Source: Flaccisagitta enflata (lineage: Eukaryota). Taken from it: 64,000 bases of DNA. Shown piece by piece: positions 1 through 53,076 of this stretch. The stretch is taken from NCBI GenBank assembly GCA_965153355.1, contig OZ231126.1, positions 2,046,001 through 2,110,000 on the forward strand, in the 5' to 3' direction. The position numbers and the translations under genes were made by a program. The notes under the pieces are model-generated. The model was given only the letters and a program-made list of their open reading frames with translations, did no database searches and had not been told where the DNA came from. Position 1 is the stretch's first letter; each line of letters starts with the position of its first letter.

Positions 1-42
1 CTCAATTCCACTTTTGCTTTTCTCGCTTATTTAACCTTGATT

Positions 43-2487
43 CCCGCGAAGCGGAGAAAAACATACGATGTGATTCTGATTTCCGAATGATGCTAGATTT
101 TTTTTCCTTTCACTCATTGCCTATTTAATTACTATTATTGAATGATACCCGATCCCGCGCAGCGGAGAAAATTGGCATATGGCAAAAAATGATAATAGTG
201 ATGAATGAAATAGCCATGAATTAAAACCCGCACAGCGGAGAAAAATTGAAAAATAATCAGAATTTTAATTTTTATTCTTTTTTTTGTTTCTCGAATAAAA
301 ATAAGATAGATTCATTCAATCTAACCAGTGATGTGACTCAAATATTCATTAAAATCAAACAAATGAAATAGCCTAACAAAATGAATTATGCATATCATAA
401 ATGCCAAATCCATAATTTTAGAATATTTTATTTTAATAACATTATTCAAGCTAAAATAAGACAAGATTTTGTATATCAAAAATCCTGCAAAATACTGCAT
501 ATTTAGCTGATGCCTACCCTTGTTTAAATGTCTAGACGGATGCCTAATTATTATTTCTGTTTTCATACCCGCTCGGCGGAGGTAGAATTATTGATTCTGT
601 TTTCATACCCGCTCGGCGGAGGTAGAATTATTGATTCTGTTTTCATACCCGCTCGGCGGAGGAAAATGCATTTTTGATTCTGTTTTCATACCCGCCCAGC
701 GGAGAAAAATGCATATTGTTTACTTCGGAAAATGTCGGATTAAGTTAGATATAACCTTTCCCACAAAGTGGAGGCATTAATAGGCACCTTACCCACAAGG
801 TGGAGGCATTAATAGGTACCCTTCCCACAAGGTGGAGAACTTAATAGTAACTATTCCCACAAGGTGGAGACATTAATATTTATTTAGCAACTGCCCATTA
901 TTGTACCCGCTATAGCGGAGGATTAAAACCATTAAAGCATGGGCGGATGCCCTAAACATTGCCCGCTAAGCGGAGGAAATTAGCTACTGGTAGCTTCGGC
1001 AGTATGCGCAAAAATTCCCCTAAGAAAGGGAGAGGTTCAATACCTTATGTTGACTAGGCTGAGGCCTAAGAATAGCCCGCTAGGCGGAGATAAAATACAT
1101 ATCCTTAGCTTCGGCAGAATGCGCAAATTTTTTGCTATGCTATAAAAAAAAAAAAAAAAAAAAAACTTTGCAACAATGTTAGGATCAATTAAAAATAATA
1201 GCGCATTATTAAAAATGATATGCATAATTCATCTTACCATAAACAGTATCATAAATTCTGAATAATATTACATAAACCCGTTGAACGGAGAAAACATAAT
1301 TGTGAGATTCAATTTCCTTTCTTAAGCCAAGAGCACCCAAGCTCACTCATGATTGAAGTTTTTTATTTTTAAAGAAAATCCTTAGTCATCAGAAGATACA
1401 GAAATGAAATCATAGAATAGCTACCAGCAAAATATCATTAAATTGTAATCAATACTAAAATCCCCGTAACGGATAAATGATTAATTATGAAAAATATTCA
1501 ATACTGGGCTAACTAATGGTTATTCAGTATGAATTGACTAAATCCCGCGAAGCGGAGAGTAAATGTTATGCCCATTACTATCTTTGACAGTATAGGAAAT
1601 TATTTTAATAACTCAAAATAACCATTAGTTGGCAGCTAGTAGAAAATTTTTTAAATGCTCAAACCCCAACAGGGAAGATATTGATACCCGCTAAGCGGAG
1701 GTAAAATCCATGATACACGTAGCATAAATTTAATATCAACACCCGCAAAGCGGAGAAATAATTTATGAGCATGAATCATGATTTTGATACTAATACCCGC
1801 GAAGCGGAGAAATATTCATGATGCATGAAACATGATACTTAATATTGATACCCGCGAAGCGGAGAGAAGATCATGATGCACGTAGCATAATACTTGATAC
1901 TGAAACCCGCAGAGCGGAGAGAAAAGAAATTAGTAATGCATAAAATGATACTTAATGCTAATACCCGCAAGCGGAGATAAATTCATGATACTTAATACTG
2001 AAACCCGTGAAGCGGGGAAGAAAATTCTAAAATGATTTTTTTTTATCTAAATAATTATACTGCAACTATTTAAAGAATTGCATGACATGATGCTTTATAC
2101 TAAATCCCAAAGATGGGAAGAAAAGCATGAAATTCTTTTATCCTTGGTATAAATTGCCTAAACCCGCGCAGCGGAGAATGAGATCAAAAATTTTTTTTAC
2201 TTTTGCTCATATGAATGATATTGAAACCCGCAAAGCGGAGAAACAAAAATTTTTTGATATTGAATCCCACGGAGCGGGGAAGAAAATCATGATGCACTAT
2301 GATTTTAATGATCATTGATGTTAAAAAATTGTCCCCGCGTAGCGGATGAAGAAAATCATGATGCACTATGATTCTAATGATCATTGATGTTAAAAAGTTG
2401 TTCCCGCGTAGCGGATGAAAAATGTCATGATGCAATATGATTTTAATGATGATTAATGTTTTAAAATGTTCCCCGCATAGCGGATGA
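43..2487 (+). repeat. Dispersed array of about 30 co-oriented mini-hairpin motifs (consensus CCCGC-N3-GCGGAG) in AT-rich, partly repeated spacers; may continue left of the window
   Basis: Copies read at about 43, 154, 227, 568, 608, 648, 691, 760, 792, 824, 856, 906, 962, 1076, 1277, 1462, 1544, 1687, 1742, 1796, 1851, 1906, 1964, 2004, 2106, 2163, 2227, 2266, 2333, 2403 and 2471. Local tandem blocks of 40 nt (568-690), 32 nt (760-870), ~55 nt (1687-2020) and ~69 nt (2266-2487). Confidence 0.93.
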
Positions 2488-2838
2488 AATAAATCAAAAA
2501 CCTATTTGTTAGCTTCGGCAGAATGCGCAAATTTTTTTTGATATGAGCAAAAACTTGAAGAATAGATCATGATTGACAAAGATTTTTTTTTAGAAAAATG
2601 TTAAGATAATACATGGCATCACGGAAATCAGAATTACATGAAATCACCCTCATAAAAGTCACTTTTTTTTCATTCATGATATGATAGTAATTGAGTTGAA
2701 CGCACCCGAAATATACATGAAAATAAGGAAACCGGATATGAGAAAGAAAATGCATTTAATAACATGATCATAACAAAAACAAATGAAACTTCCGCTACAT
2801 CGAGTTGTACAAAAATGTTTTGCTTTAAGTCGAGATGA

Positions 2839-3315
2839 GTGATTAAACTGTTTTGTTATTGTTTATGCACTATGTTTTGTTTACTCACAGAACAAATAAT
2901 TAAAGTGGCTGAATCTGTTGACACTACATCGATTGCTAGGCAAGCCGAGCAATTGGTAGAAAAAACCAAAGACGAACTTTTGCTAGAGTATAAGAGGCAA
3001 TTGTCTCAAAGTCAATTGAGAAATACGATCCATCAGTGCATAAATAGCAATTTGAGCGACAAAATCGAACTGATAAGAATCGAAAATCGTCATCTTAAGA
3101 CATTGAACAAAAATCTTCGCGAATTAGCCATCTCGAGTGAAGCAGCATTACAAAACAATACTCTTGACACTAGAATTAAAATACTGCGTGAATTAGTGAG
3201 AAATTGGCGTGAAAGCGTAACAACTTTGGAGGCGGCAAACACCGCTAACGACGCTCTTCGGCAACGGGCGGAAATCGAGGCGCTTGAATATCGACAAAGG
3301 CTTGAGGATATTTGA
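2839..3315 (+). CDS. Short predicted coiled-coil ORF (up to 158 aa; first ATG at 2872) directly upstream of the giant ORF
   Basis: Open frame with heptad-like E/L/R/Q-rich sequence (IELIRIENRHLKTLNKNLRELA; ANDALRQRAEIEALEYRQRLE). Its TGA (3313-3315) lies 2 nt before the next ATG (3318). Confidence 0.55.
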   Translation: MIKLFCYCLCTMFCLLTEQIIKVAESVDTTSIARQAEQLVEKTKDELLLEYKRQLSQSQLRNTIHQCINSNLSDKIELIRIENRHLKTLNKNLRELAISSEAALQNNTLDTRIKILRELVRNWRESVTTLEAANTANDALRQRAEIEALEYRQRLEDI

Positions 3316-3317
3316 GG

Positions 3318-6300
3318 ATGGAAAGGGACGGTATTAGAGGCGTGAGCTTGGAGTGTGGTGCTTGTGATGTCGTTGGCAGCCCGTTGGAGTCTGAATGGAG
3401 GTTGTTTTTGAATTGCCCTCATAGTGTGCACAAAGAATGTGCGGAAGGATGTGAGGGAGTCTGTCCCAAATGCGGATCCGCGTCGCCGTTCAGAATTGTC
3501 AATAGGGAGATTGTCACGTCCATCGAATTGGATAAGAGATTAAAGAAGGCGCTGAACAAGCACGAGACGAAAAAGAAGCATCTGATGGCGACGTTGGACC
3601 GTTCGGCGGGGGCATGGAGAAGTTTGGATCGCGTGATGAAATATCGCGTAGTGCAAGCGAGAGAGAAGCGGAAGTGGAGAATTAAGCAGAGGCTGCACAA
3701 CGAAAAGAAAGGGCGTAGATTGAATGACGCCGATGACGACGCCGAATCCGTCGGCACTTCCGGCGACGCCGAGGAATCCGCCGATAACGCCGCCGACGCC
3801 GCCAAATTAGGTGGCGAGAGTCGATCGGTGGAAGGCGAGGAAACGGGGGAGGAGAGAGACAAGCCATATCGAGGCGCGGAGACGCCGGATTCATCGGTCA
3901 TTCCTCCAATACCTGAGGAAGTGAGAAGAGAAGAGAAAGAAAGGCGTGACAAGGAAGAAATGGATAAAGCCTGGAAAGCGGTCAAAGAGGACATAATCAG
4001 AGGTTTGGGTGAAGATTTTGAAGGCGAGCCTGAAAAGGCAGCAGAGCTGTGTCTGTCCAACTTATTATTGGACGTCATTCAGTCGCATGAAATGCAGGAT
4101 GATTTGGCTCGCCAATGCGTTGGTTACCTAGACAACGTCACGGAGAATCAGGCGTTAGTGATGGAGTCGTTGTCCAAGACTCAACCGACGTTGTACAACG
4201 ACCTCATGGAGGCTCTTCCGGATGCTGAGGAAGACTTGAATGAGGCAGCGAGAATCATTTCTGAAATGAACAAGGAAAGAAATTATCAAAGGCACGCTCT
4301 TGAGCAACTTACAAAGTTCCAATCGACGCTGGAAATACGTCAAAGGGAGCAAAAAGAAGAAGATGAGGGCGTCGACAGGTCACCAAAGCCCCTTCAAGCC
4401 GTCCAAGAGACGATAGAACTGGGCAAAGAATTTGGGATCCATATCCAGACGATAAGGTCTGACGCCGCCGATCGCGTAGCCCTAGAAATGGAAAGAAGAG
4501 GAAGGGATTTGCCGGTTAATGCGTCAATCGTTGACATAATGACCATGTGTGACCTAAACAGAGAGATTCCTCCTCAGGGCAGAAGAGTTGACGTCTTCAA
4601 ATTCGACCGGGAAAAGCCCCCAAATTCCATCCCTGAATTGGTGAAGGAGGTGGAAGAATTAAAAAGGCAAAGAAACAGTTTTGCCTTGATGCTCAAAATG
4701 ACAGCCATTAGGCTTGAAATTTCAGAAAGGGGGATAAGAAACAGAGATAACACGCATGCAAAAATGGTTAGATTCCAAGAAGTGCGTCAAGAGCAGAACG
4801 AAGAAGTGCACATGGCCTTTGAAGTATTTATTTCCATGCTTCTTTCCGAGCTTTGCCGTGAAAGATTGATCCGGCAAGAGGCCCTCAAGATTTTGGAGGA
4901 GGTTCCCGAAAGAGCATCAGCCATGGTGGCCATGTTCAGGATGGACGGTCCACAAGATGACATGGGTGAAAAGAAAAAGATGACAATTCATCGAGATTCC
5001 ATGGCCTGTGACATCGATTTGGTGTCAAGAAAGTTGGCGACGGGGTTACCGCCTGAAGAAAAAGAAGAGAGGCTGGCGCAAATCAAAGATGGCATGACCC
5101 AGAAAATGAATCTGGTTTGGGCTGAGCCTCAGCCGGTGGACAAAAGATGGACCAAAGGTATGGCAGAAGCTCTATGGGAAGAGATGACCAATCCCGTACC
5201 GCAACTGGAATCCCTCGAAAGGAAAGAGGAGGAAGACAAAGGACCTTTGCCGCCAATAGTGCCGCTGTCCGATGAGAGGAGACAAGAGGCCCTGAACTTA
5301 GCAATCGCGGAAAGTGGAGGACCAAGATTGGGCCCTCATGATTCATACAAACCGCTTAGTCAGACAGAAAGAAGAGCGTTCATCAACGATCCATGGGTGC
5401 AAAAGATGAACAACGACTTCATGATGTGGAGCAACATCAATCTGCTCAAAATCCCAATTGATTACGAGGGGGTTAGAAAGGAGTGGGAGGATGCAGATTT
5501 GGAGACGGAGGAGGAAAAGGAAGAGAAGAAGAAGAATAAGAAAGGAAAGGAAGGAAAAAAGCAAAAGAGCAAGAAGGCCAAAGAAGGAGAAATGCTAACA
5601 ACAAAAGAAGAGTTGGAAGAAATGAAGAAGAGGGGAGGAGAAGACCAAGAAAAGACGGGTAAGGCGGGAATGATGGTCCAATGGACAAATCCCGACGGCT
5701 CATTGGAATTGCAATATTTCCCGCCCGAAGAAATTCCACGTCTGATAGAGGCCGAAAGAAGAGTAAATCAAAGAAAGGAGATTGAAAGGGAAATGAACGC
5801 CTTCTTTGGAGTCAAGAATTCTGACAGCGAAGATAGCAGTGAAGAAGATGAAAAATCCAAACCGCAAAGTTCACCGCCATCAAAAGCATCGCCCAGAGGC
5901 GCGAGTGGTAGTTCACCGAAGGCGATGTCTCTCCACACCCATTCAAGACAGCCAACACCGGGCAGAGGCCGTCCAGGTGCGTCTAGTTCCCCGTCAAACA
6001 TGGGAAAGACGTTCAGAGGCCCGAGGGAATTGACGTGCTGGCATTGTGGGATCAAAGGTCACCACATAAATGATTGCCCCACGATCAAGTGTTGGCGGTG
6101 CGGTGAAACAGGTCATCATCAAAAGGTCTGCCAGGCCCCGAAAACGACGAAGGAAATCTGGGATGGGGCCGACAAAGATGGCAAGAAAGAGAAGAAGGAT
6201 GACGACCAAGACAAGAAGAAAGATGGAAGTGGGCCGTCAATCTGTGCGGTAGAAATGGTGGAAATGGAAGGTCCTTCAGAAAATGAAGAGGAAGAAGAGA

Positions 6301-9300
6301 AGGAGCAGTTGGCTATGTTGGAGGAGGTTGAGTCCGACGACGATTGGATTAACCATCCACCTGGTCTTGCTTATCCCAGCTCTGAATCAGAAACCGAGAA
6401 TGATCTGATTGACAACAAGTCGATTGTGTTGGAAGAAGAGATGCAACAGAAGCTGAGCAAAAATCAGAAAAGAAAGCTCAGAGTGAAGAGGAAAAAAGAG
6501 TACAAAAAATCGCTTAGAGCAGCCTCTGATGGCACAAACACAATTGCAGCCCAGTCAGAGGAGCCAATTGCAGAAGCAAGCCCTGAAGGAGCAGAAGGTC
6601 ATTCAAAAGCTCCACCAACTCTTCCGTCAGAAGCACCGGCGACAAACAGCCAAGGGGCAACCTCAGACACATTGATCATGTCTGAGCGACAAAAGAAAGA
6701 TGAGCAAATCAAAGAAATGATAGCCATTGAGCCTAAAGGAGGAGATATGGTTTTTAAAGTAGTTGACAAGATGCTACTCAACCGTCTCTTCGAAAGCGTG
6801 CTGGAGGAGAATGTAAAGGAAATGGTGCTCAGCTTCCAGGGCCAATTCTTTCGTCAAGGCTACGAGTCCACCTCCAATGAGGGCATATTTGTCCCAGAAG
6901 CACAGATGACAATCCAGGAAGCCCTTGGATATCATTTTTTGATCTGGCATTGCGAAGATTGGATCGTTCAGAAATATGGGGAAAAACCCAAGTTGCGAAC
7001 TGAAGCAGAAATGCAAGACATCAATGCAAAGAAGATTTCTGCAATATGCAGAATGCTTCACTATGCACGAAGGTGCGCGAAATTGATGAAAATCAAAGGT
7101 GACATCAAATCAAACGAATCTCATGCAATCACCATGTGTGCTGTTAACGCCGGCAGTGATGATGAAATGGAGCACGAGGCATCTAAAGGACAAGAGGTGA
7201 TTGTCGATTCAGAAGAGGAGAGTGAAGTACCGGTGATCAAAGTCCTCGGGGGCGACGATGATGAAACCGACGCACCTCCGCGCATCATTGACGCTAGACC
7301 TCTGGATTGTCACAAAGTGTGCCAGGCTTACACATCAGCTCATGACAGTCTGATACCCGAGATAGCCGACAAAATGGAGCAAGGACCGCCCGATGACGAT
7401 TTGCAATTTGGGGATACAATCCAAAGTGAATATTTGAACAAAGGCGAAAGTAACCTTGGGGACAAAAAAAATGGCGGATTTTTGAAACCTTTCTTTTGAA
7501 CCATAACGCGATACAACGTAAGAAAAATGGATTAAACTTGGTGATGCCTGTAAAGCCCTTCAAAACATCTTTCATTTGAGTCGTGTCTGGTATCTGTAGC
7601 TTTATCCGATTAGAAATGGCATAGGTTTGAAGAAAAATATCACCAATTGGAAAAAGGGCAAATATTGTCTTTTTTTTCGATTAGCAATTTTTGTCTCAAC
7701 GTTTTTCTTAATAATGCAATTCAGAATTGCCACAGCTACTTGATATCCGTGAGCAAATTAAAGAGCTTTGAATTTTCTTCAAAATGGCGCCAAGAACGAA
7801 TTTGTTACTCAATGCGTTTAGTTTCTATGTTTCAACAAACAAAAACATGCAAATCCTAAAGTGAATTCTCAAATTCCAGACAACCTGTTTTCATCCCAAT
7901 GCCATTTCTAAACGAAAAAAGCTAGGACAAGCAGCAACGTCTCATTTGAAAGATCTTTCGCAGAGCTTCAAAATGGTCACCAATTTTTTATAGTTTTTCG
8001 CAATTTAAGATAGATAGAATTAGTTTTCCAAAATCCGCCATTTTTTATGTCCCCAAGGTTATCGAAATTGTATCCAGGTCTCAAACAGTCATCATTCTCT
8101 CGAGAGAACAAGGTCAGGGCAAAGTAGGCATGATCTCGTATGACAGCATGCAGCATCAAGACATGGTGAAGAATGGTGGCTGGTTGCACGACGAGAGTGA
8201 AATGGAAGAGCTAGAAAAGCAGATCTTATCGGGTGAGAAATCAGGATCAATCATGAAATTGCACAAAAGAATCGAAGGGACGGACAAAGTGGCCCTCGTC
8301 AAAGCTTTATGGTCACCAGGCAAAACAATCATACGACCAAGAAATCCGTCACCCGGGCTATCGCCTGTCGAATTCATCCATTACCTGCGCTGCCAAGGCA
8401 ATCAAGACGCGATTGTGGGGCAGGAAATCTCAGCGGCGTTCACACAGATTGATGGCAAAACCGTTGTTGAGCTTTCGGCGGCGAAAAGAAAACGTTCGCC
8501 ATCTCCATTCGAGAAAAACAAGAGGAAGGACAGCGACGTCAACATCGTGGGCGCCATCACCATCGACGACGATATCACCAGCGGTGACAACGACGAGAAT
8601 TTCATCCCAAACGTCCGCCTGGAAGAAGTTGAAGGGGATGAAGAGGAGGAGGAAAGGCGAGAAGAGGTGAATGAAGAGGCAATCGATCAAGTTGCGGAGC
8701 AGCAACCAGGCGCATCTGCAGCATCAAACACTTCATCTGCGGAGGAAACCCAAAACCAAACTCCGGCAGATGAAGGTCCCTCAGCAACGCCACTCACGGC
8801 AGAATCATTGGAAGTGGTGCGACCAAAGGCGTTGACAAAAAGCCAAGAAGAATTATTGGCAGAAATGGCAGTAATGGCGGGTAAATTGGAGAAAAAGAAC
8901 AAAGAAGTGGCCTGCCTCGTCAACAAGGTTAAAAAGCTTAAATGGGAGCTCAATCTTCGTTCACCCGTGGACAGATGGAAGGTGTTGAAGGGCAAATGGC
9001 CAAGAACCCCTTCGATGGAAATGAAAGCGGAAATTGTCGGAGTCCCCTTGCACATCTTGGAGCAAAACGAATTGCTGATGGAGTTGAATCAGTCGGAGGT
9101 GGCAGGAAGGGCGATGATATCCGGCGAAATCCGTCAAGCTGGCGAGACGATAACGGAAGCGGTAAATCGTCTCGGTCCAATGGGACTGAAAAATAGGAGA
9201 AAAGAATTACAAGCCAGCTCGGATTTGGAATGGAAAAAGTTAGTCCCCAAAACCTACGACGAGATCAAGGAAGAGGTTTTGGAGGCCGCGCGTGCGGAAG

Positions 9301-9497
9301 AGCAGCATTATCACTTCCGCGCGGAACGCATCGCAACACGCGCGAGAGAAAGATACCAGCCCGCGGAATGGTATTTTGGTCCTTCCTTCGGCGAGCTCTT
9401 GGAGCAGGAAGCCGAAAATAGAAGGCGAATCAACGCGGCGCGACAAGGTTCTTTCCAAGCGAATGTCACGCAATTGGACGACGACAAAAGTGGCTAA
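3318..9497 (+). CDS. Giant Gag-like/unknown protein (~1,856 aa after removing the MITE at 7453-8061): N-terminal RING-H2, coiled coils, acidic/basic tracts, two CCHC zinc knuckles; interrupted in this copy
   Basis: ORFs 3312-7499 and 8130-9497 share a frame. Deleting the MITE plus one TA gives ...NKGES|IEIVSRSQTVIILSREQGQGKVG-MISYD... with no stop. RING-H2 pattern C-x2-C-x16-C-x-H-x2-H-x2-C-x7-C-x2-C at ~3354-3473. CX2CX4HX4C twice (CWHCGIKGHHINDC, CWRCGETGHHQKVC) at ~6036-6131. Confidence 0.85.
7453..8059. mobile_element. Non-autonomous foldback MITE with TA target duplication (Tc1/mariner-type by TSD)
   Basis: Termini ACCTTGGGGACAAAAAAAATGGCGGATTTT / AAAATCCGCCATTTTTTATGTCCCCAAGGT, imperfect inverted similarity for roughly 200 bp inward, TA at 7451-7452 and 8060-8061. 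Confidence 0.92.
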
Positions 9498-11837: not shown

Positions 11838-12506
11838 CAGAGGGCAGAGGGAGGGAGGGAGAGGGACGGAAGGAGAGGGAGGGAGAGAGAGGGAAGGAGA
11901 GGGAGGGAAGGAGAGGGAGGGAGTGATAGGGAGAGTGGGAGAAGGAGTAAGGTAGGGTGGGAGAGGAAGGGAGAGGGGGAAGGGGGAGGGAGGGACAGGG
12001 AGGGAAGGAGGGAGAGGGAGAGTAGGAGGGAAAGGGGGAGGGGGAGGAAAAGGGAAGGAAAGAGAGAGGGGGAGGGAGGGACAGAGAGAGAGAGAGAGAG
12101 GGAGGGTGAGGGGGAGGGAAAAGAAGGGAGAGAGGGAGGGAGGGGTAGGGGGAGGGAGAGATTGAGGGAGGGAGAGAAGGAGAGAAAGCGGGAGGGAGAG
12201 GGTGAGGGGGAGGGAAAGGGATGGAGTGAGAAAGGGAGGGAGGGAGAGGGAGGGAGGGAAAGGGAGGTAGAGGGGGAGGGGGATGGAGAGTGAGAGGGGG
12301 AGGGAGAGTGAGAGGGGGAGAGAGAGTGAGAGGGGGGTGGTGAGGGAAAGGGAGGGAGCAAGGGAGAGAGGGAGAGGGGCAGGGAGTGAGGGAGGGAGAG
12401 AGGGAGAGAGGGAGAGAGGGAGGGAGAGAGGGAGGGAGAGAGGGAGGGGGAGGGAAGGAGAGAGGGAGGGAGCATGGGAGGGAGACAAAGAGAGAGAGGG
12501 TGAGAG
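11838..12506 (+). repeat. Low-complexity G/A-rich (GGGA-type) tract followed by short (CA)n
   Basis: Nearly pure purine strand with dozens of GGG runs; the overlapping Pro/Leu/Ser or Glu/Arg/Gly ORFs are by-products. Confidence 0.95.
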
Positions 12507-13139
12507 TCACACACACACACACACAAAACAACCCTTACAATTTTTTTCCGGTCGGCGAGAGCCGCCTTTACTGGTAACTGTGGGTTTTTCTGCATTTTTG
12601 AGCAGTATTGGGGTGTATGAGCATGTAACAAGCAAAAATAAAATCATTCCCCAAGCGCTTTTTTAGTAATCTTCAAAATAGAAAAAAAACTGAACCTATC
12701 TTTAATGCAGATTCTTATGAGTTGTACTGACTCATTTTTTGGTTCCATATTGTTTTTCTATATAAAATTTCCTTTCGTTTCATAGGTCACACTATATGGT
12801 TTTATATAGAGATTAGGTTTTCATATTTTGAGCCACCGTTACTTTTTTGTAACGGTGACTCAAAAAATAAAAATTTTAATTTATCGCAAAAGTATTGAGT
12901 GCGACCTATCAAATTAAAGGGAATTTTGCATAGATTAACAATATGGAATAAGAAATTTAGTCAACACATCCCAGAAGAATCTGCATTAAAATAAGGTCTA
13001 TTTTTTTTTTATTTTGAAGATTACTCAAAAAGCGCAAAGGAAATGATTTTGCTTTTGATAGTTTCATGCTCATATACCCCAATACTGCTCAAAAATGCAA
13101 AAAAACCTACAGTTATATGACTTTTCACTCAAAATTGTT

Positions 13140-13954: not shown

Positions 13955-16072
13955 CACTGTACTTTTAAAACAATTCTGGGTGAAAAGTCATAACTGTAGA
14001 TTTTTCTGCATTTGTCAGCAGTATTGGGGTGTAAGAGCATGTAACTAGCAGAAACGCTTTTTGAGTAATCTTCAAAATGGACCAAATTTCAATGCAGATT
14101 CTTTTGAGATGTATTGACTAAATTTCTGATTCCATATTGTTAATCTATGCAAAATTCCCTTTCATTTGTTAGGTCGCACTCTATACTTTTGCAAAGAATT
14201 AAGATTTTTAATTTTGAGTCACCGTTATAAAAAAATAATGATGGCTCAAAATATGAAAACCTAATTTCTATATAAAACCATATAGTGTGACCTACAAAAT
14301 GAGAGGAAATTTTGTATAGAATAATAATTTGGAATCAAAAAATGAGTCAATACAACTCATTAGAATCTGCATTAAAGATAGGTTTAATTTTTTTCTATTT
14401 GGCAAATGTCACGGTTCCACAGCATGCTTGAGGGCCCGACTTTCTGCCAATCTATGTTAGCTCAAGCTTCCGGTACATCATTGTAAATGATTTTAACGGT
14501 TCAAATACATCCACAACTACCAAGTGCACAATTTCAAACCATTTTTTGTGACCCTCCCTACCCCTAGGGGGTCCAAAAATTCAATCAAAGGGCTATTTTT
14601 GGCATGTCTCCATTCTGTCTCCAGTAGAAAAAAGCAAGCAAGACCAATCAAAAAATGTTTTGTCATATGAAATTATGAGTTTTCCCCAACCAGTATCAAT
14701 CCAACAGCATACACAAAAAAATTTAACTCATTACGCCAACGATAAGTTACCAAAAAATGGTAAATCAATCAGATTTAACCCTTCTCGATTTTTTTGCTTT
14801 TTTTCTCTCAAGGCTGAATATCATGGTATTTATCTTTTAAAACCCCCTTTGTCTTAAACATTAAGCATTTTTTCTTTTGCCATTCGTTGGACAACTACTT
14901 GAAGGGCATTCCTCCATTTTCATGTTACTGGGTTGATCCTAAGCAGAGAAATAGCATTTTTCTTGAAGCGTATCAATTCGCGCACACCCCCAAACTTCTT
15001 CCTAACGCTTACCTAACGCTTTAGATATGCCACTATTGTGCCAAAGTGACACAATTCACATGAAAACTGACAACACCATGCGAAAGAGCGTGAAATTTTG
15101 ATTCTACCCTGATAATTTGAAATCTTAACTCTCAAGCGTTTAGCCACAATGAAATTTCATATTTTGTTGGTCCTGAAGTGTGAACAGAATTGATACGCTC
15201 TTCGACGGCGCATCGTAGTTAATTTTTTGTTTCCACACAGCGCTTCTCACACAAATGCGCGATGCTTTTGTTTCTTAATTTGGTAAATTTTTTTAAAATC
15301 AAAATTGGCATATCTCAGGAACTGTTCGAGCTAGCCCATTGAAATTTTGCATGGTTGATACCTGGACCAAGAGGGTCCTTTGCCTAAATTCTGATGCGAC
15401 GTAAAGAATGTCGAGTAGTCCAACCAGACCAACCAGCCTACCAGATGAAAAAATGAAAAAATGGCATAACTTCTAAGATAATTGTCCGATCTGGTTGAAA
15501 TTTTGCATGAAGCTTCCTTCAAAAATTCCTCGTCACGGGCATAAAAAAGAGCTTGGGGAAATAATTTTTTCTTCCAACAGCCCATCCAGCCAGAAATGGT
15601 ACTTATAGAGATTTTTTTAAAAAACTTTAAAAATTCAAAAAAATTTCAGAAACATGATCACATGTTTGCTTGGACGTTATCATTGAGAATTTCACTGTCA
15701 TATTGATTTCTTCATTGTATTTAGCTAATTTTTCTAGTAATAAAATTGCCAACAGTATCTATTTAAGCCTAATTTGCATGAAAAATGAGCGTACTTAAGA
15801 AAATCCAAGTATGGATCCACACATAATAATAGCTAAGCTACATGATGACGTATGGTTTTGCTCAATTTTCAAACATGTAAAATTGATGAATTTCACCCCG
15901 TCCATGGTTGGCTTAGCATGACACCAGCCATTTTGAAGATTTCTCAAAAAGCACTCGGGGAATAATTTTGTTTCTGCTAGTAACATGATCATATACCCCA
16001 GTACTGCTCAAAAATGAAGAAAAACCCACAGTTTTATGACTTTCCACTGAGATTTTTTTTGAAAGCACAGTG
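13955..16072. mobile_element. CAC-terminal long-TIR non-autonomous transposon (Chapaev/CMC-like), copy 2
   Basis: CACTGTACTTTTAAAAC...GAAAGCACAGTG; flanks TCGC / CCGC (4-bp TSD with one mismatch); body near-palindromic once the 14401-15929 insert is removed. Confidence 0.82.
14401..15929. mobile_element. Unclassified insertion with GGC...GCC ends and 4-bp ATTT target duplication
   Basis: Host reads TTCTATTTTGAAG in the intact copy (~23048). Here it is split as CTATTT|GGCAAATGTCA...TGACACCAGCC|ATTTTGAAG, with imperfect TIRs. No transposase recognised. Confidence 0.7.
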
Positions 16073-17509
16073 CCGCTGGCCCATGGTTGTAAGAGCTAAG
16101 AGCGGTAAATTTTTTTCCCCTTTTTAGTCGCGGACACTTGACTCTACACCTTGCCGTGCCGTTGTCGGTTGGTAGGTCGGTTGGTCGGTATACCGCGGTA
16201 GGTCACATTTCTAAATTACGAACGGTTTTTGCATTACTGCTCCTGCCCAACCGTCCGCGACTGGATTGCCGTGTATCCGGCCTTGTTTGTGTACATGCAC
16301 TGTGCTTTTAAAACAATTCTGAGTGAAAAGTCATATAGCTGTGGGTTTTTCTGCACTTTTGAGCAGTATTGGGGTGGAAAAGCATGTAACTAGCAAAAAC
16401 AAAATCATTCCCCAAGTGTTTTTTGAGTAACCTCCAAAATCAGAAAAAAATAGACCCAATTTCAATGAAGATTCTTCTGAGATGAGTTGACTAAATTTTT
16501 GATTCTATAAAGTTAATCTAACAGGGTGTGCAAAATTATCTGGACTTGGCAATTACTTTTCTTAAAAACCCTGTAGAAAAAATGATTTTTGAATGCATGA
16601 AGGGTAGATATAAAAAAAAGTGTCCTTTTAGCATTAAAAACCAAAATTCACAGAAAATAAAAAAGTCAGAAACAAAATTTTTTGGGTAAATTTGACTCAC
16701 TTAAAACACTCCTTTAAAAGATTCATAAAAAAAAACCTGAAATCTTGTTGTTAGTTTTTCTTGCCCTTCAGGCTTAGTTTATTTGCTTTTTTGAGCTCCA
16801 TTGATGTTGATTTAACTTACCTCCCTCAGCATAATGTGTGTTAAGCATAGAAAGTCACTATGGAGTGGTTACTAATACAAAAATCTATGATTTTGCACAA
16901 TGGAATTGGCTTGGGCTTTTTGTATAACATCTGCTAAAATCTGATCTAGGGCGAGTATTGACACAATTTTTTTTTTCAAGAAAACCATTTAGGCAGTATA
17001 TCACTTTGAGCAAGGTTTCAAGTTTGAAAGAAGTGTGTAACATTGTAAAAATAGTGTGTCAATATTGCAACTTTATTCAGATTGAGCAATGGACATCAGT
17101 GGGAGTATGGCCAATAGCAGCATACCATCTTCCAAGTTTCAGCCAATCACAGCTTCCCCAGGGATCCCTGCTGTTTCCCTCCTATTCAAGTAGGGTGAAA
17201 GCACGCACAAAAGGGCAATCTAGTAGGGCCCAAAGTAGTTAAGGATTTCAAATTAACAAGTTAATAGTTAACTAACTACTTTTTTACCTAGTTAACTACT
17301 AAAGTAGTTAAAACCAGCTTAGATCAATATCTAGCCTATTATCTTTAGTAAGCCACTTACTTTAAAGATAAACAGTCGATTTTTTCAGTCTTGTTGAGTT
17401 TTATTAATCTATCATGATGGCGCTAAGCAAATGTGATCAACAACAAGTTCAAGTAGCAAAAAAAATTATGTTTGAAGATAACATCAACGTCAAATCAAAT
17501 CAGTCAAAC

Positions 17510-38649: not shown

Positions 38650-39690
38650 GCACTACTCCAGCTCCCGCTAGTTCCTCTCCCGCGGCTCCTGCTTAGCTTA
38701 TTCCCTTACTGCTGCTCCCACTAATTCCTCTCCCGCTGCTTCTGCTCCCGCAGCTCCTGTTTCAGTAGCTCCCGCTCCCGCAACTCCAGCTCCATCAACT
38801 CCCGCCTCCGCTCCCGCCCCCGTTCCGCAGTCGCAACTCCCGCTTCCGCAACTCCTCCTGCTCCTCTCGCTCCAGTACCTTCCGCTCCCGCTCCTCCCAC
38901 TTCTGCTCCTCCCTCTCCAGCTCCTCCCACTCCCGCGACTCCTGCTCCTACTCCTCCCGCACCCGCAACTCCCGCTCTTGCTCCTCCTCTAGCTCCTTTA
39001 CCTTCTGCTCCTCCCGCTCCCGCTCCTCCCGCTACTGCAACTCTCGCTCCTGCAACTCCCACTCCTACTACTCCCTCTCCCGCTCCTCCCGCTCCCGCTC
39101 CTCCCGCACCCACAACTCCCACTCCAGCAACTCCCGCTCCAGCAACTCCCACTTCCGTAACTCCCGCTCCTTCTGCTCCTCTCGCTCCAGTACCTCCCGC
39201 TCCTCCCGCTCCCGCTCCTCCCACTTCTGCTCCTCCCTCTCCCGCTCCTCCCGCTCCCGCAACTCCTGCTCCTACTCCTCCTGCACCCGCAACTCTTACT
39301 CTTGCTCCTCCTCCAGCTCCTTTACCTTCTGCTCCTCCCGCTCCCGCTCCTCCCGCTCCTGAAACTCTCGCTCCTGCAACTCCTATTCCTACTCCTCCCT
39401 CTCCCGCTCCTGCTCCTCCTGCATCCACAACTCCCACCCAGCAACTCCTGCCTCGCAACTCCTGCTCCTCCTGCTCTTGCTCTGGTACTCCTGCTCCTCC
39501 CCGCTTGCTCCTCCTGCTCCAGAAACTCCTGCTCCGGTATCTCCCACTCCCGCTCCTCCCAATCCCGCAACTCCCGCTACCCCCGCTTTAGCCAACTTCA
39601 ACTCCCGCTTCCGCAGCTTCCGCCCTCCACTTCCTCTGCATCAACTTCCCCCTCTCCCGCTTATTCCTCTCCCACCACCTCCGCCTATTC
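38650..39690 (+). repeat. GC-rich triplet-built minisatellite (CTCCCG/CTCCTG/CAACT units)
   Basis: Pyrimidine-rich strand with internal duplicated blocks; related array in opposite orientation at 44328-44920. Confidence 0.85.
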
Positions 39691-44327: not shown

Positions 44328-44920
44328 AGAGCGGGAAATGCGGGAGCGGGAGTTGCGGAAGCGGGAGCTGCGGGTGCGAGAGGAGCGGGAGCGGGAGAAG
44401 CGGGAGTTGCAGAAGAGGGAGGAGCGGGAGTTGCGGGAGCGGGAGGAGCGGGAGTTGCGGGAGTTGCGGGAGCGGGAGTTGCGGGAGCGGGAGGAGCGGG
44501 AGTTGCGGGAGCGGGAGGAGCGGGAGTTGCGGGAGCGGGAGGAGCAGGAGGAGCGGGAGTTGCGGGAGCAGGAGGAGTGGGAGTTACGGGAGCGGGAGGA
44601 GCGGGAGTTGCGGGAGCGGGATTGGCGGAATAGCCGGATGGGCGGAATAGCCGGATGAGCGGAATAGCGGGAGGGCAGAAGTAGCAGCAGTGGGGGAGAG
44701 CAGGATTGGCGGGAGAGTTGAAAAGTGCGAGAGGTTGAAGATTGGGAGTAGCAGGAAAGAGGAAGTTGCAGAACAGGCGGGAATTACAGAAGAGGAGTCT
44801 GGGGAGTGGCAAGAGAGAAGTTAGAGGAAATAAGTGGCGAGGAATGGACCGGGAAGAAAGGAGTCGAAAGCCAGAAGTGGCTGGAGAGATAGCCGGGAGT
44901 GAAAGTCTAGCGGGAGTAGC
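44328..44920 (-). repeat. Second, inverted copy of the GCGGGAG/GGAGTT minisatellite family
   Basis: GCGGGAGTTGCGGGAGCGGGAGGA 24-nt units, decaying rightwards. Confidence 0.85.
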
Positions 44921-48634: not shown

Positions 48635-51357
48635 CTACATCACCTGCGCCTTCTCCATTACAGAGACGCGCGGGATCATTCCGGGAAGCTCCAACACCTC
48701 ACAATCCGTGGGCGAAAGGCGATAAATGATGTCGCCAACGGCATCAGCATCGAAAGGCGCAGGTGGTGCAGCCGTCTGAGAATGCATCCTCCTTGACGCG
48801 AAGCATAAGAAAGAGAGAACCGGGGCAGATTGATTAGCAAAGTTCTTATCGGTACACAGATTCAAATTTACAACAAAAACTCAACCTCAACCCTTCCTAA
48901 ACCATGAAACTTACGCGGGCGTTTTTCGCCAGGCCCCGGGGCGGACGTCATTCCCACGCCCCGGGTAGCGCCCCCGACTTGGCCGGCCTGTCCATCGATG
49001 GGATGAGGATGTGAAGGTGGAATACGATCCTCAGCGAATGGCGGCGCTCTCCACGCCATGTTGCAAATTGGTAGTTAAATTGAACAGCAACTGGGCGTGG
49101 CACCAATCAGCGTTTAGCTGGCGGTCTGATTTTTCCAAGGCCTGGTTCGATTTTTCTTATTCCCAGGCTTGGGAGCGTCTTTTTGCGACAGGATCTGCTG
49201 ACCGACTTTTTCTGCTGGAGAAGACGCAGGAGGTGGAGATGCTGCATCGCAATTCGGCGCCAGTCGAAATTTCGGACGTACAGCGGACGCAGTTTTAAAG
49301 TCGACGGCCATAGCCGCCTTTGCGCGTTCCACCGCTTCCTCTTTCTTCTTAGCCTTCATCGCACAGGCCTGCTTCTCCTTTTCAAGCTGCTTCTCCAGTT
49401 CCACGACTCGCTTATTGCCTTTGACCACCTCATTGTCCGCAGCCATTGCTGCTCGACGAGCATCGTCTCTCTCCTTTTGGATATTGCGACGAATCCTCTC
49501 GTCTAAGACTTGACGAGCCGCTTCAACTCGTTGACGCGGCGGAAGCGACGCGAAGAAGTCTTTTGGAAGCCTTGATGCTAAATTCTTCACCACCCCCAAT
49601 GGAGCATTTGAGGTCAGTAAAGAGGCTTCTCGTAGCAATGACTCGGCGATGTGGTGTCCATGCGCAGGATCAAAGGCTGGATCCGACGGGGGAGGCGGGT
49701 TCTGCACTTGCTGCAGACCTTGGGCAGACTCGGTTTGCTGACGAGGCGCTACACCAGCTTTAACAGATGCTGAAGCACCGCCAACTAGTTCGCTTCCTAC
49801 CGCTGCTTTTGATGGCTGCGAGTGAAAGGAAGACGCTCCCGTCTGCTGACCAGAGACTTGAGGTTTAACAGCGGACGCCCGAAGCACCGCAAGAGAACCT
49901 CCTTGGTTGCTGCTTTGTGCTTCTTCCTAGCTCTCTTGGTCTTCTTCCCCTTTGCTGCCGCTGCCCCAGGCGCCTGATCCAGCTTCTGGGTTGCTGCCAA
50001 CGTTGCCGTCGACGAACCGCTTGAAGCTTCTCCTTGGCCTTTGGGCGTTACTGCTGCAGGGGGCGCGCCTGGAGGCGCTTTGAAGGGGCCTTTGCTTTTG
50101 GAATTTGGCCCTTTTGTTGACCTCGGCACATTGCGCGTTTGTGGAGTCTTTCCCCGACGTGATCTCTTCGACTGTTGTGAGGGAGTGACGTCACGAGGAC
50201 CCTGTTGCTGCTGATTTGGGGGATGAACCAATCCAGGGCGCGATTGACGACTTCCTGATGCTGTAGAGTGAATTGCCGCTGATGTAGCTGCGGCTGCGTC
50301 GAGCACGAATACCGCTGGTGGAGTTGCGGAAGCGCCGACGGAAGTTGCACCAGGAGGCTTCGGAGCCGCATTCTTCCTCTTCGTCGCTTGGACCATGCGA
50401 CGAACCTCCTTATCATGCTCCCTCCTTCTCTTATTGCTTTGGATTTTGCGCTCCAGAGTCTCCGAGCCAAGCTCTGTTTGATTAGCCGATGAGTGCATGA
50501 GAGTTTGTTTGTTGCAGCATACCGAAAGTTTTTCAAACTCTTTGAAGAGGAGAGATACTCCGACGTCCGGACTGATGATACGATACCACCAACGCGCCTG
50601 CATCCGTTGGTGCTTCTCTTCCGGCGTCGCAGTGTCCACTTCCGGGTCAATGTCTTTCTCCACCGCCTCCCCATTCACCAACACCTCCTCCTCTGTTTCC
50701 ATCCCCTCCTCCTCCACTCTTGCTCCATCATTGACCGATCTCTCTCTCTCTTCGCCCCCGCTGCGTTGACGTGCAGCTGCAGACGCTTGATCGCGAGACG
50801 CTGGGCGACCGAAATCAAGGCAAAATTGGCGAGGCGATGGGGGCAAATCCGATGATGATGACGCTCGCCCGCGGAAGTGTGGATAAGTCCGTCGGGCGGC
50901 CGACTGACGAGATCCGCCGAACCTCCATCTCTGATGACCACCAATGGAGGAAGCGACGCGGGGTCAACGTGGTGCTGATGGCTGTTGATTTTATTTACCA
51001 ACGATCATCTGTTGACGCTTTATTCGCCATTTTTGCGCTTTCACGACGGAACGTATGTCGCCATTGAAGGCTGCCAACGCGACAGCCTCCTCCCCCGCCC
51101 CGAACGACGCTTCGTGATGCAGATCCTCTCGAGCCGGCCCGTTGAAGAGTCGATGAAGATCCAGCGATCCGTACGACGCCGACACGCCGGTTTCTGCCTC
51201 GAGACGCTGCTGACGGGACATCTTGACTTCGACGAGCGAATTTCAAGATGCTAACTGACTTCGTAGATGGAATGACGTCGTCAGCGGAAGCTTTGAAATG
51301 TTCGTAATCGAGAACTGATAATGGTAAGAACGGATTTTGGCACAATAATATGTACAT
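48635..51357 (-). pseudogene. Extra sense-strand ORF region (~2.7 kb, several frameshifts) between integrase and 3' LTR; unknown basic/coiled-coil protein
   Basis: Consecutive overlapping ORFs (50995-51357, 50991-51221, 50675-51001, 49797-50846, 49114-49887, 48635-48865). The same peptides recur in the right copy (e.g. HQRMQARWWYRIISPDVGVSLLFKEFE; LDERIRRNIQKERDD). Confidence 0.7.
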
Positions 51358-53066: not shown

Positions 53067-53076
53067 NNNNNNNNNN
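53067..53076. other. Assembly gap (10 N)
   Basis: nnnnnnnnnn in the sequence; indel density looks higher on both sides. Confidence 1.

Follow-up and report, generated by a model that had tools for sequence, protein, structure and literature searches.

A conserved hairpin-forming box shared by divergent tandem repeats in Flaccisagitta enflata

What kind of element repeats a short GC-rich hairpin in AT-rich non-coding DNA, always in the same orientation, and in which form might the hairpin act? The question is raised by the left end of a 64,000-nt stretch of the Flaccisagitta enflata genome (GenBank assembly GCA_965153355.1, contig OZ231126.1, positions 2,046,001 to 2,110,000 of the forward strand; hereafter the window, numbered from its first letter), where a compound array of 33 units occupies positions 43–2485 of the + strand and each unit carries the box C-CCGC-NNR-GCGG-AG in a single orientation. 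The array fills the first 2.5 kb of the window, and its left end may fall outside. The original prediction, made from the letters alone, had read the boxes as repeated binding sites in RNA or single-stranded DNA (ssDNA) whose hairpin shape is under selection. The reading that we favour, tentatively and with slightly less than an even chance, is that this AT-rich, non-coding stretch of a eukaryotic genome holds a compound repeat of the minisatellite or satellite kind, variable in copy number, whose conserved directional dyad box would act at the DNA level.

A pattern scan of the 64 kb with CCCGCNNNGCGGAG at up to 2 mismatches returned 32 matches, 27 of which (17 exact) lie on the + strand at 43–2485, so that the recurrent, co-oriented CCCGC-N3-GCGGAG described before was recovered; box spacing is 32 to 341 nt, mostly 32–73 nt. 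The two matches on the − strand (2333 and 2471) are mere palindromic overlaps of + strand units, and the three in the other 61.5 kb (3760, 21793 and 36177) are weak. The chance level, determined from 100 dinucleotide shuffles, was a mean of 5.22 matches with a maximum of 10. Mini-hairpins of GC pairs starting with CC occur at 11.1 per kb in 1–2700 versus 0.28 per kb in the remaining 61.3 kb, and those in the array that satisfy the flank rule number 30 on the + strand and 6 on the − strand. A relaxed hairpin finder gave 30 units within 1–2700, to which three units chosen by eye (1461, 1661 and 2266) were added to form the 33-unit alignment A1. When a covariance model built from the units was run over the whole window with filters off, 31 hits with E≤0.18 were obtained, all on the + strand between 36 and 2495, while the best hit outside the array had E=0.59; hits on the training units arise by construction, and the informative part is the absence of hits elsewhere.

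The array is built head to tail. Tandem Repeats Finder (TRF) delimited four tandem sub-arrays with periods of 40, 32, 55 and 69 nt and 3.2–5.5 copies, and self-BLAST agreed with this tandem structure and revealed nested local duplications. The 14-nt GC-rich dyad box is common to the 32-, 40-, ~55- and 69-nt families and to single units, and the unit consensus runs from an A/T-rich lead through C, the CCGC stem, a 3-nt loop, the GCGG stem and AG into an A-rich run. The spacers, with 26% GC and many low-complexity runs, had been described as drifting, a description that needs amending in that the drift is not a simple one: the spacers of the 55-nt family, the 69-nt family and unit 43 are homologous and mutually alignable, and the array is a set of tandem sub-arrays.

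Conservation was compared between the box and the sequence around it. For units of different families, the 11 fixed box positions have an identity of 0.89, the loop one of 0.38 and the 20-nt flanks one of 0.34 (random expectation 0.28), a comparison that is partly circular because the units were found by the motif itself; the sequence directly upstream of the box is 0.2–0.48 identical between families. A fairer test is provided by five units of the 55-nt family that were set by periodicity, in which 11/11 box columns versus 12/40 ungapped spacer columns are invariant (Fisher p=2.8e-5), with a pairwise identity of 1.00 in the box versus 0.63 in the spacer. In the younger 69-nt family, box and spacer are alike (0.88 vs 0.84). 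Conservation is therefore limited to an island of about 14 nt, as originally claimed, while the proposed check of stem against spacer divergence separates the two in the 55-nt family and finds no difference in the 69-nt family. Among sample contigs, none of the 18 differing places listed for 1–2500 falls inside a box, boxes being 18% of that stretch (P ~0.025); the count covers those 18 listed places only, with 227 further entries for 1–6000 outside it.

These figures bear on the possibility that the array is a functionless neutral minisatellite whose palindromic GC core persists mutationally, through template-switch correction, conversion at the one stretch of homology that the units share, and AT-rich spacers that turn over faster by slippage and indels; we consider this unlikely. 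The composition of the spacers speaks for such a repeat, as do the nested duplications, but the contrast of 11/11 with 12/40 invariant columns was measured on aligned columns free of gaps and reflects substitutions rather than indels.

The expected mini-hairpin of 4–5 bp folds in 33/33 units, as RNA or DNA, so that the island is indeed structured, and a folding energy of −4 kcal/mol or lower is reached by 28 of the 33 units versus 6% of 3,045 control 20-mers. In alignment A1, 92.2% of 128 cells are paired, versus 27–53% when the partner is slid. Changes on both sides of the stem were observed in 8 cells at two pairs, and none of 500 shuffles matched either the paired share or the covariation score. 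The stem variants named in the original prediction all exist, CCAC-AAR-GTGG in four copies (760, 792, 824 and 856), CCGT-TGA-ACGG at 1277 and CCCA-AAGA-TGGG at 2105, and its claim of compensatory change holds with a reduced number of events. Four of the 8 double-change cells are the CCAC/GTGG units of a single tandem family, and we estimate about 3–6 independent stem-keeping events, counting besides CCAC/GTGG the units at 1277, 2105 and 1017, that at 906 with its extended stem and that at 1461, where the stem is shifted in register. Two stems are broken by one-sided changes, a G-T at 2004 and an A-C at 2266; since these are wobbles on opposite strands, the one-sided changes show no strand preference. 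A second conserved structure was not found in the units or spacers, RNAalifold on whole units retaining only the 4-bp box stem; when stretches of 290–350 nt were folded, both strands had z-scores between −2.6 and −3.5, which stem from pairing between units. Constraint on a small hairpin-forming island, as the original prediction had it, is supported at modest strength.

Kept pairing might reflect a transcribed array in which each unit is a small RNA hairpin with a GGAG tail, the whole offering an RNA-binding protein a multivalent platform, and hairpin shape being what is selected; we give this a low probability. The stem-preserving variants CCAC/GTGG, CCGT/ACGG, CCCA/TGGG and CCCT/AGGG are in its favour, together with the G-T intermediate at 2004, which would be G-U on the + strand, the strand asymmetry of the flanks, the purine at the third loop position and the conservation of the box above that of the spacers. 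Lin28 and retroviral NC use CCHC knuckles to bind GGAG, and the gene adjoining the array codes for two CCHC knuckles (read from the translation; Pfam zf-CCHC E=0.0054, below cut-off). However, the GG of GGAG sits within the stem, the A-C break at 2266 is a wobble on the other strand, so that the intermediates are without strand preference, about 3–6 independent paired events are thin evidence, and the units hold no second conserved structure. The array matches no Rfam family at its gathering score, the best match in 1–3000 having 25.5 bits versus the 60 required and the others being weak C/D- or microRNA-like matches with E of 0.8–10.

The box is also directional. The C ahead of the stem is invariant and an A follows the stem, and the third loop base is a purine in 27/27 canonical units (A in 20, G in 7), the first loop base being unconstrained. 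Co-orientation of the units is, for its part, an automatic outcome of head-to-tail duplication. According to one report, DNA template switching can create and maintain perfect stems without RNA-level selection (PMC8794818), which counts for neutral persistence of the core and against an RNA platform, and the small number of independent paired changes likewise suits a neutral minisatellite. Palindrome-correcting mutation of this kind can account for the kept pairing, but not for the asymmetric positions of the box: the C before the stem, the A(G) after it and the third-loop purine are as conserved as the stem. Moreover, no loop is the reverse complement of another, the relation that inversion of the loop by template switching would give.

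Copy number was followed in sequencing runs, parts of 1–2600 being present in DNA runs labelled organism A and in several marine metagenomes. Contigs of such runs (X1, X3 and X6) contain in-register joints, 885→822 adding 64 nt, or two 32-nt units, and 1712→1876 removing 163/164 nt, or about three 55-nt units, so that the copy number varies between samples; such variants and in-register joints are what neutral minisatellite turnover would also produce. A further joint, 2239→2348 (also 2255→2348), fuses the end of the box at 2227–2240 to sequence just past the box at 2334–2347, which belongs to an unlike unit. In X1, the summed word depth of the bins covering 601–1000 was 16,648 and 49,352 versus about 900–2,800 in other bins, and in X1, X3 and X6 the 32-nt unit had 10–40 times the summed word depth of its neighbours. 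Loose contig ends link 32-nt units to other flanks; the behaviour of this monomer suggests longer alleles or additional loci.

Among the runs listed as carrying parts of 1–2600, no RNA run was found. In the poly(A) RNA run X15 of the same study (about 6 in 100 of the run read; short RNAs not captured), 0 reads fell on 1–3600, and the 8 partial reads at 3740–3773, mostly less than 90% alike, are apparently spurious. This counts against a transcribed platform, with the qualification that the neighbouring gene was uncovered too and that short or non-adenylated RNAs are missed, so that all it makes less likely is that this sample had abundant polyadenylated RNA from the array. Given the few independent events, the automatic co-orientation, the action of template switching and the lack of any transcript seen, the original proposal of a binding site in RNA or ssDNA describes what the boxes may be, and a satellite-like repeat whose box acts at the DNA level fits at least as well.

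The high summed depth of the 32-nt units and their joining to other flanks could also be expected if the repeats had a mobile-element origin, either within a non-autonomous element of Helentron or miniature inverted-repeat transposable element (MITE) type or as head-to-tail, 5′-truncated 3′ ends of a retroposon (a stem-loop with an A-rich tail), which we regard as very unlikely. MITEs containing tandem repeats reportedly exist (PMC3879986), an A-rich tract lies behind every box, and an 18-nt inverted pair (68–85/2622–2639, 94% complementary) encloses almost the whole array. By our estimate, however, such a pair is at about chance level in 3 kb of AT-rich DNA, and a second pair (127–145/2674–2692) is not mirrored in order. 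Helitrons end in CTRR, and no CTRR-type end lies behind the hairpins. Identity of only 0.2–0.48 between families upstream of the box is unexpected for truncated copies of one source, and of the 16 open reading frames (ORFs) scanned across the window, including 4 that adjoin the array, none matches a Rep/helicase, transposase or reverse transcriptase, the sole Pfam matches being two sub-threshold zinc fingers on one ORF. Helentron-derived HINEs with central tandem repeats and a 3′ palindrome provide a precedent (PMC7492417), but in that source they are characterized by sub-terminal inverted repeats, a flanking microsatellite, and monomers of 140–180 bp with a single 3′ palindrome, not one per 32–69-nt unit. 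The array does not fit the class of Helentron/HINE- or MITE-borne repeats as defined there, as the 32–69-nt monomers each have their own palindrome and convincing terminal inverted repeats are absent from the sequence within the window, beyond which the left end may lie.

The tentatively favoured reading, a satellite-type repeat with a box acting in DNA, starts from what was observed: the box is enriched, confined to the array and conserved in excess of its flanks, its pairing is kept, its flank and loop are directional, copy number varies, and one monomer family has excess summed word depth. That the box acts in DNA, binds a protein and serves as a place of exchange is what we infer. On this reading, it would be the box that is retained and spread, and it would work at the DNA level as a short recognition sequence that may fold back into a 4–5 bp hairpin once replication or transcription opens the duplex; it would probably be bound by a protein. 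Because it is the sole patch of homology between unlike monomers, unequal exchange and conversion could take place there.

Several points weigh against this reading. A stem of 4 bp is too short to be extruded stably as a cruciform from a duplex, so that folding needs transient single strands and the boundary with an ssDNA or RNA reading becomes blurred. Selection on a hairpin in single-stranded form would be expected to leave just this combination of kept pairing with a directional flank and loop, and the array, which lies about 830 nt upstream of a gene, could have a regulatory role. The joints are indicative only, coming from short contigs at 85% likeness with some sides below 30 nt, and copy number cannot be read off summed word depth. 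The covariance model found no second array in the 64-kb window, and the 19-bp box of Meloidogyne repeats, discussed below, has 0 matches here at up to 3 mismatches. The DNA and RNA readings overlap, because the 4-bp stem folds only in an opened duplex, and an intermediate proposal is that the box is a one-strand hairpin, in RNA or opened DNA, recognized by a dedicated protein. The array would then be a multivalent hairpin platform, either a chromatin or centromere-identity element of the box-repeat kind whose fold, beyond its sequence, is under selection or a tethering or packaging site for the neighbouring RING/CCHC-knuckle protein; we think this quite unlikely.

The sub-arrays and single units, all on the + strand, are arranged as follows. 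Single units at 43, 154 and 227 (43–240) precede sub-array A (546–704; period 40 nt, 3.9 copies, 91% matches), with boxes at 568, 608, 648 and 691, and sub-array B (753–878; period 32 nt, 3.9 copies), whose boxes at 760, 792, 824 and 856 read CCCAC-AAR-GTGGAG. Next come the single units of 906–1089, at 906 (4-nt loop), 962, 1017 (CCCT/AGGG stem) and 1076, and those of 1277–1676, at 1277 (CCGT/ACGG), 1461 (3-bp stem), 1544 and 1661 (3-bp stem). Sub-array C (1684–2017, TRF 1684–1989; period ~55 nt, 72% matches) has boxes at 1687, 1742, 1796, 1851, 1906, 1964 and 2004 and is followed by single units of 2105–2240, at 2105 (CCCA/TGGG), 2163 and 2227. Sub-array D (2266–2496, TRF 2279–2496; period 69 nt) has boxes at 2266, with one A-C mismatch, 2334, 2403 and 2472, the last with the tail GGAT instead of GGAG. 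The sub-arrays are separated by these single units and by stretches, as long as 340 nt, that have no hairpin.

A 20-nt element, GCTTCGGCAG-N-ATGCGCAAA, has three copies on the + strand, beginning at 993, 1108 and 2512, each right behind the last unit of a block. Copy 1 occupies 993–1012; copy 2 (1108–1133) ends in a T-run (1128–1133) followed by a 24-nt A-run, and copy 3 (2512–2540), with a T-run at 2532–2540, marks the right end of the array. Copies 2 and 3 have additional flank in common in the self-BLAST, which points to nested segmental duplication and not to a terminator; the element may be a decayed unit plus duplicated flank. The T-runs bear on a further explanation, namely that the array is a cluster of small RNA genes, with units resembling C/D-box small nucleolar RNAs or transcribed by RNA polymerase III and ending at T-runs, which is extremely improbable and close to refuted. 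Weak C/D matches of the 69-nt units were returned by cmscan (snoR13, 25.5 bits, E=0.86; sR9, 20.2 and 19.4 bits, E=0.8–1.3), but these are far under the gathering scores of 36–60 bits, no match reaches gathering over the 64 kb, words resembling C and D boxes are not kept between units, and units of 32–40 nt are too short. A U6-like reading of GCTTCGGCAG...GCGCAAA with the T-run was rejected, as no U6 match was obtained at E up to 10. A hammerhead, a kink-turn, a CTCF-like site (32-nt family only), E2F and Zn-cluster sites and a Shine-Dalgarno sequence with a mini-ORF were also discarded, since the positions they require, compared by eye with their consensus sequences, are not kept across the units.

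Downstream of the array, and serving here as its context, lies an orphan gene (3318–9497, + strand), with exons at ~3318–7449 and ~8058–9497 around a GT-AG intron at ~7450–8057. Its protein has a RING-H2-like Cys/His pattern on the N-terminal side and two adjacent C-x2-C-x4-H-x4-C knuckles at about residue 905, and its sole homologue is a metagenomic protein (P0001, 1,856 aa), 96–97% identical to 3318–7451 and 8061–9494, across the GT-AG intron. No Pfam match above cut-off was obtained for any of the 16 ORFs, this protein included. An ORF of 158 codons at 2839–3315 (+ strand), coiled-coil-like, stops 2 nt ahead of the ATG of this gene in another frame, and a polypyrimidine tract with CAG at ~2880–2889 resembles a splice acceptor; the ORF could belong to this gene as an exon further upstream or form a small gene of its own.

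The window as a whole behaves as eukaryotic nuclear DNA, with many microsatellites (TRF) and no tRNA or Rfam matches in its 64 kb. A segment of about 60 nt is present in both orientations (12560–12640, 13050–13115, 13985–14045, 15990–16050 and 16335–16400) and looks like the ends of a MITE-like family. Long low-complexity arrays, purine-rich (GAGG-type) and CTCCCG-type, occupy 11846–12500, 38714–39578 and 44329–44628, the last two being reverse complements in kind, and 10 N at 53067–53076 mark an assembly gap. A 348-aa ORF on the − strand (49797–50846), within a GC-richer block at 48–56 kb, has only unnamed marine metagenome or transcriptome homologues (55–93% identity) and no Pfam domain.

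Satellites with dyad boxes and diverging monomers are rare cases in which constraint in repetitive DNA maps to specific bases; in Meloidogyne, a box of this sort marks the chromatin of the centromere. This locus is a further example, from a marine eukaryote, in which the stem varies and yet pairs, so that fold and sequence would be separable by experiment. If the box proved to be genome-wide and protein-bound, it would offer a handle on chromosome organization in the lineage; if confined to this locus, it would belong to an ordinary variable minisatellite with an unusually tidy core.

Among known systems, arrays of clustered regularly interspaced short palindromic repeats (CRISPR) are defined by near-identical 23–55-nt repeats, unrelated spacers of even length and cas genes. 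The array resembles them in its repeat-spacer look and palindromic repeat core, but the conserved part is only 14 nt, the apparent spacers are homologous and range from 18 to more than 300 nt, box spacing varies from 32 to 341 nt, a scan of 16 ORFs found no cas match, and the GT-AG intron marks the host as a eukaryote; a CRISPR array, which the original prediction had also discounted, was rejected. The box pattern itself recurs in metagenomes, where at least 120 loci, all checked by script, have two boxes 18–48 nt apart; they are not relatives but repeats in GC-rich coding sequence or in bacterial intergenic DNA. The nine that combine a GC fraction under 0.52 with two or more boxes on the same strand were checked in detail. 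Viral contigs gave only 4 chance pattern matches and no relative of the neighbouring protein. As separate observations, three bacterial-looking contigs (L016, L017 at ~3040–3145 of the reverse complement, and L086) carry 2–3 tandem 34–35-nt units with an ACCCGC-NNA-GCGGAG mini-hairpin and a second hairpin. These repeats are intergenic, by eye flanked by aminoacyl-tRNA synthetase genes in L086 and beside a release-factor-like gene in L017, and look like repetitive extragenic palindromic (REP) elements, unrelated to the eukaryotic array. Another contig (L083, 51% GC; ~4960–5260 of the reverse complement) has a 42-nt tandem repeat of at least 6 copies with the box and a second GC hairpin of GGGGA/TCCCC type.

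Hypervariable minisatellites of the Jeffreys type have a GC-rich core common to different units and polymorphic copy number. The array shares with them the short GC-rich core and the variable copy number, whereas the classical core is G-rich, forms no dyad and is not known for paired stem changes. Homotypic clusters of sites, among them the gypsy insulator with its 12 Su(Hw) sites and the repeated Sal-box terminators of ribosomal DNA spacers, likewise consist of many co-oriented sites of 12–18 nt at variable AT-rich spacing adjoining a transcription unit, but those sites are not known to be dyads with compensating changes.

Nematode satellites come closer. According to one report, some have conserved motifs, including CENP-B-box-like ones, at the junctions of monomers that are 32–64% identical, and these motifs were proposed to promote array rearrangement (PMC3694981). 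One population variant of our array likewise joins unlike units box to box (2239→2348), while the nematode motifs are not described as hairpins in the abstract of that report, and the transitions between sub-arrays in the reference run mostly through unique spacers, not boxes.

The nearest likeness is with the CenH3-associated repeats of Meloidogyne incognita, so that a feature of this kind is already in print. In that report, monomers of 45–83 bp, 56–73% identical, share a fully conserved 19-bp box of about 80% GC in an AT-rich genome; the box forms a dyad (about −5.4 kcal/mol), and the arrays, both monomeric and mosaic ones, lie amid unrelated sequence (PMC8097292). The box described here is another, shorter one (14 nt, with a free 3-nt centre) and not the same 19-bp sequence; its stem varies with paired changes, whereas the Meloidogyne box is reported there as completely conserved. 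The likeness is one of sequence architecture. What we claim by analogy is thus a likeness of kind and not membership: as in the described Meloidogyne repeats, short dissimilar monomers of various lengths (32–69 nt here), in arrays that are monomeric or mosaic amid unrelated sequence, diverge around one conserved GC-rich dyad box of similar folding energy (about −5 kcal/mol) in an AT-rich setting.

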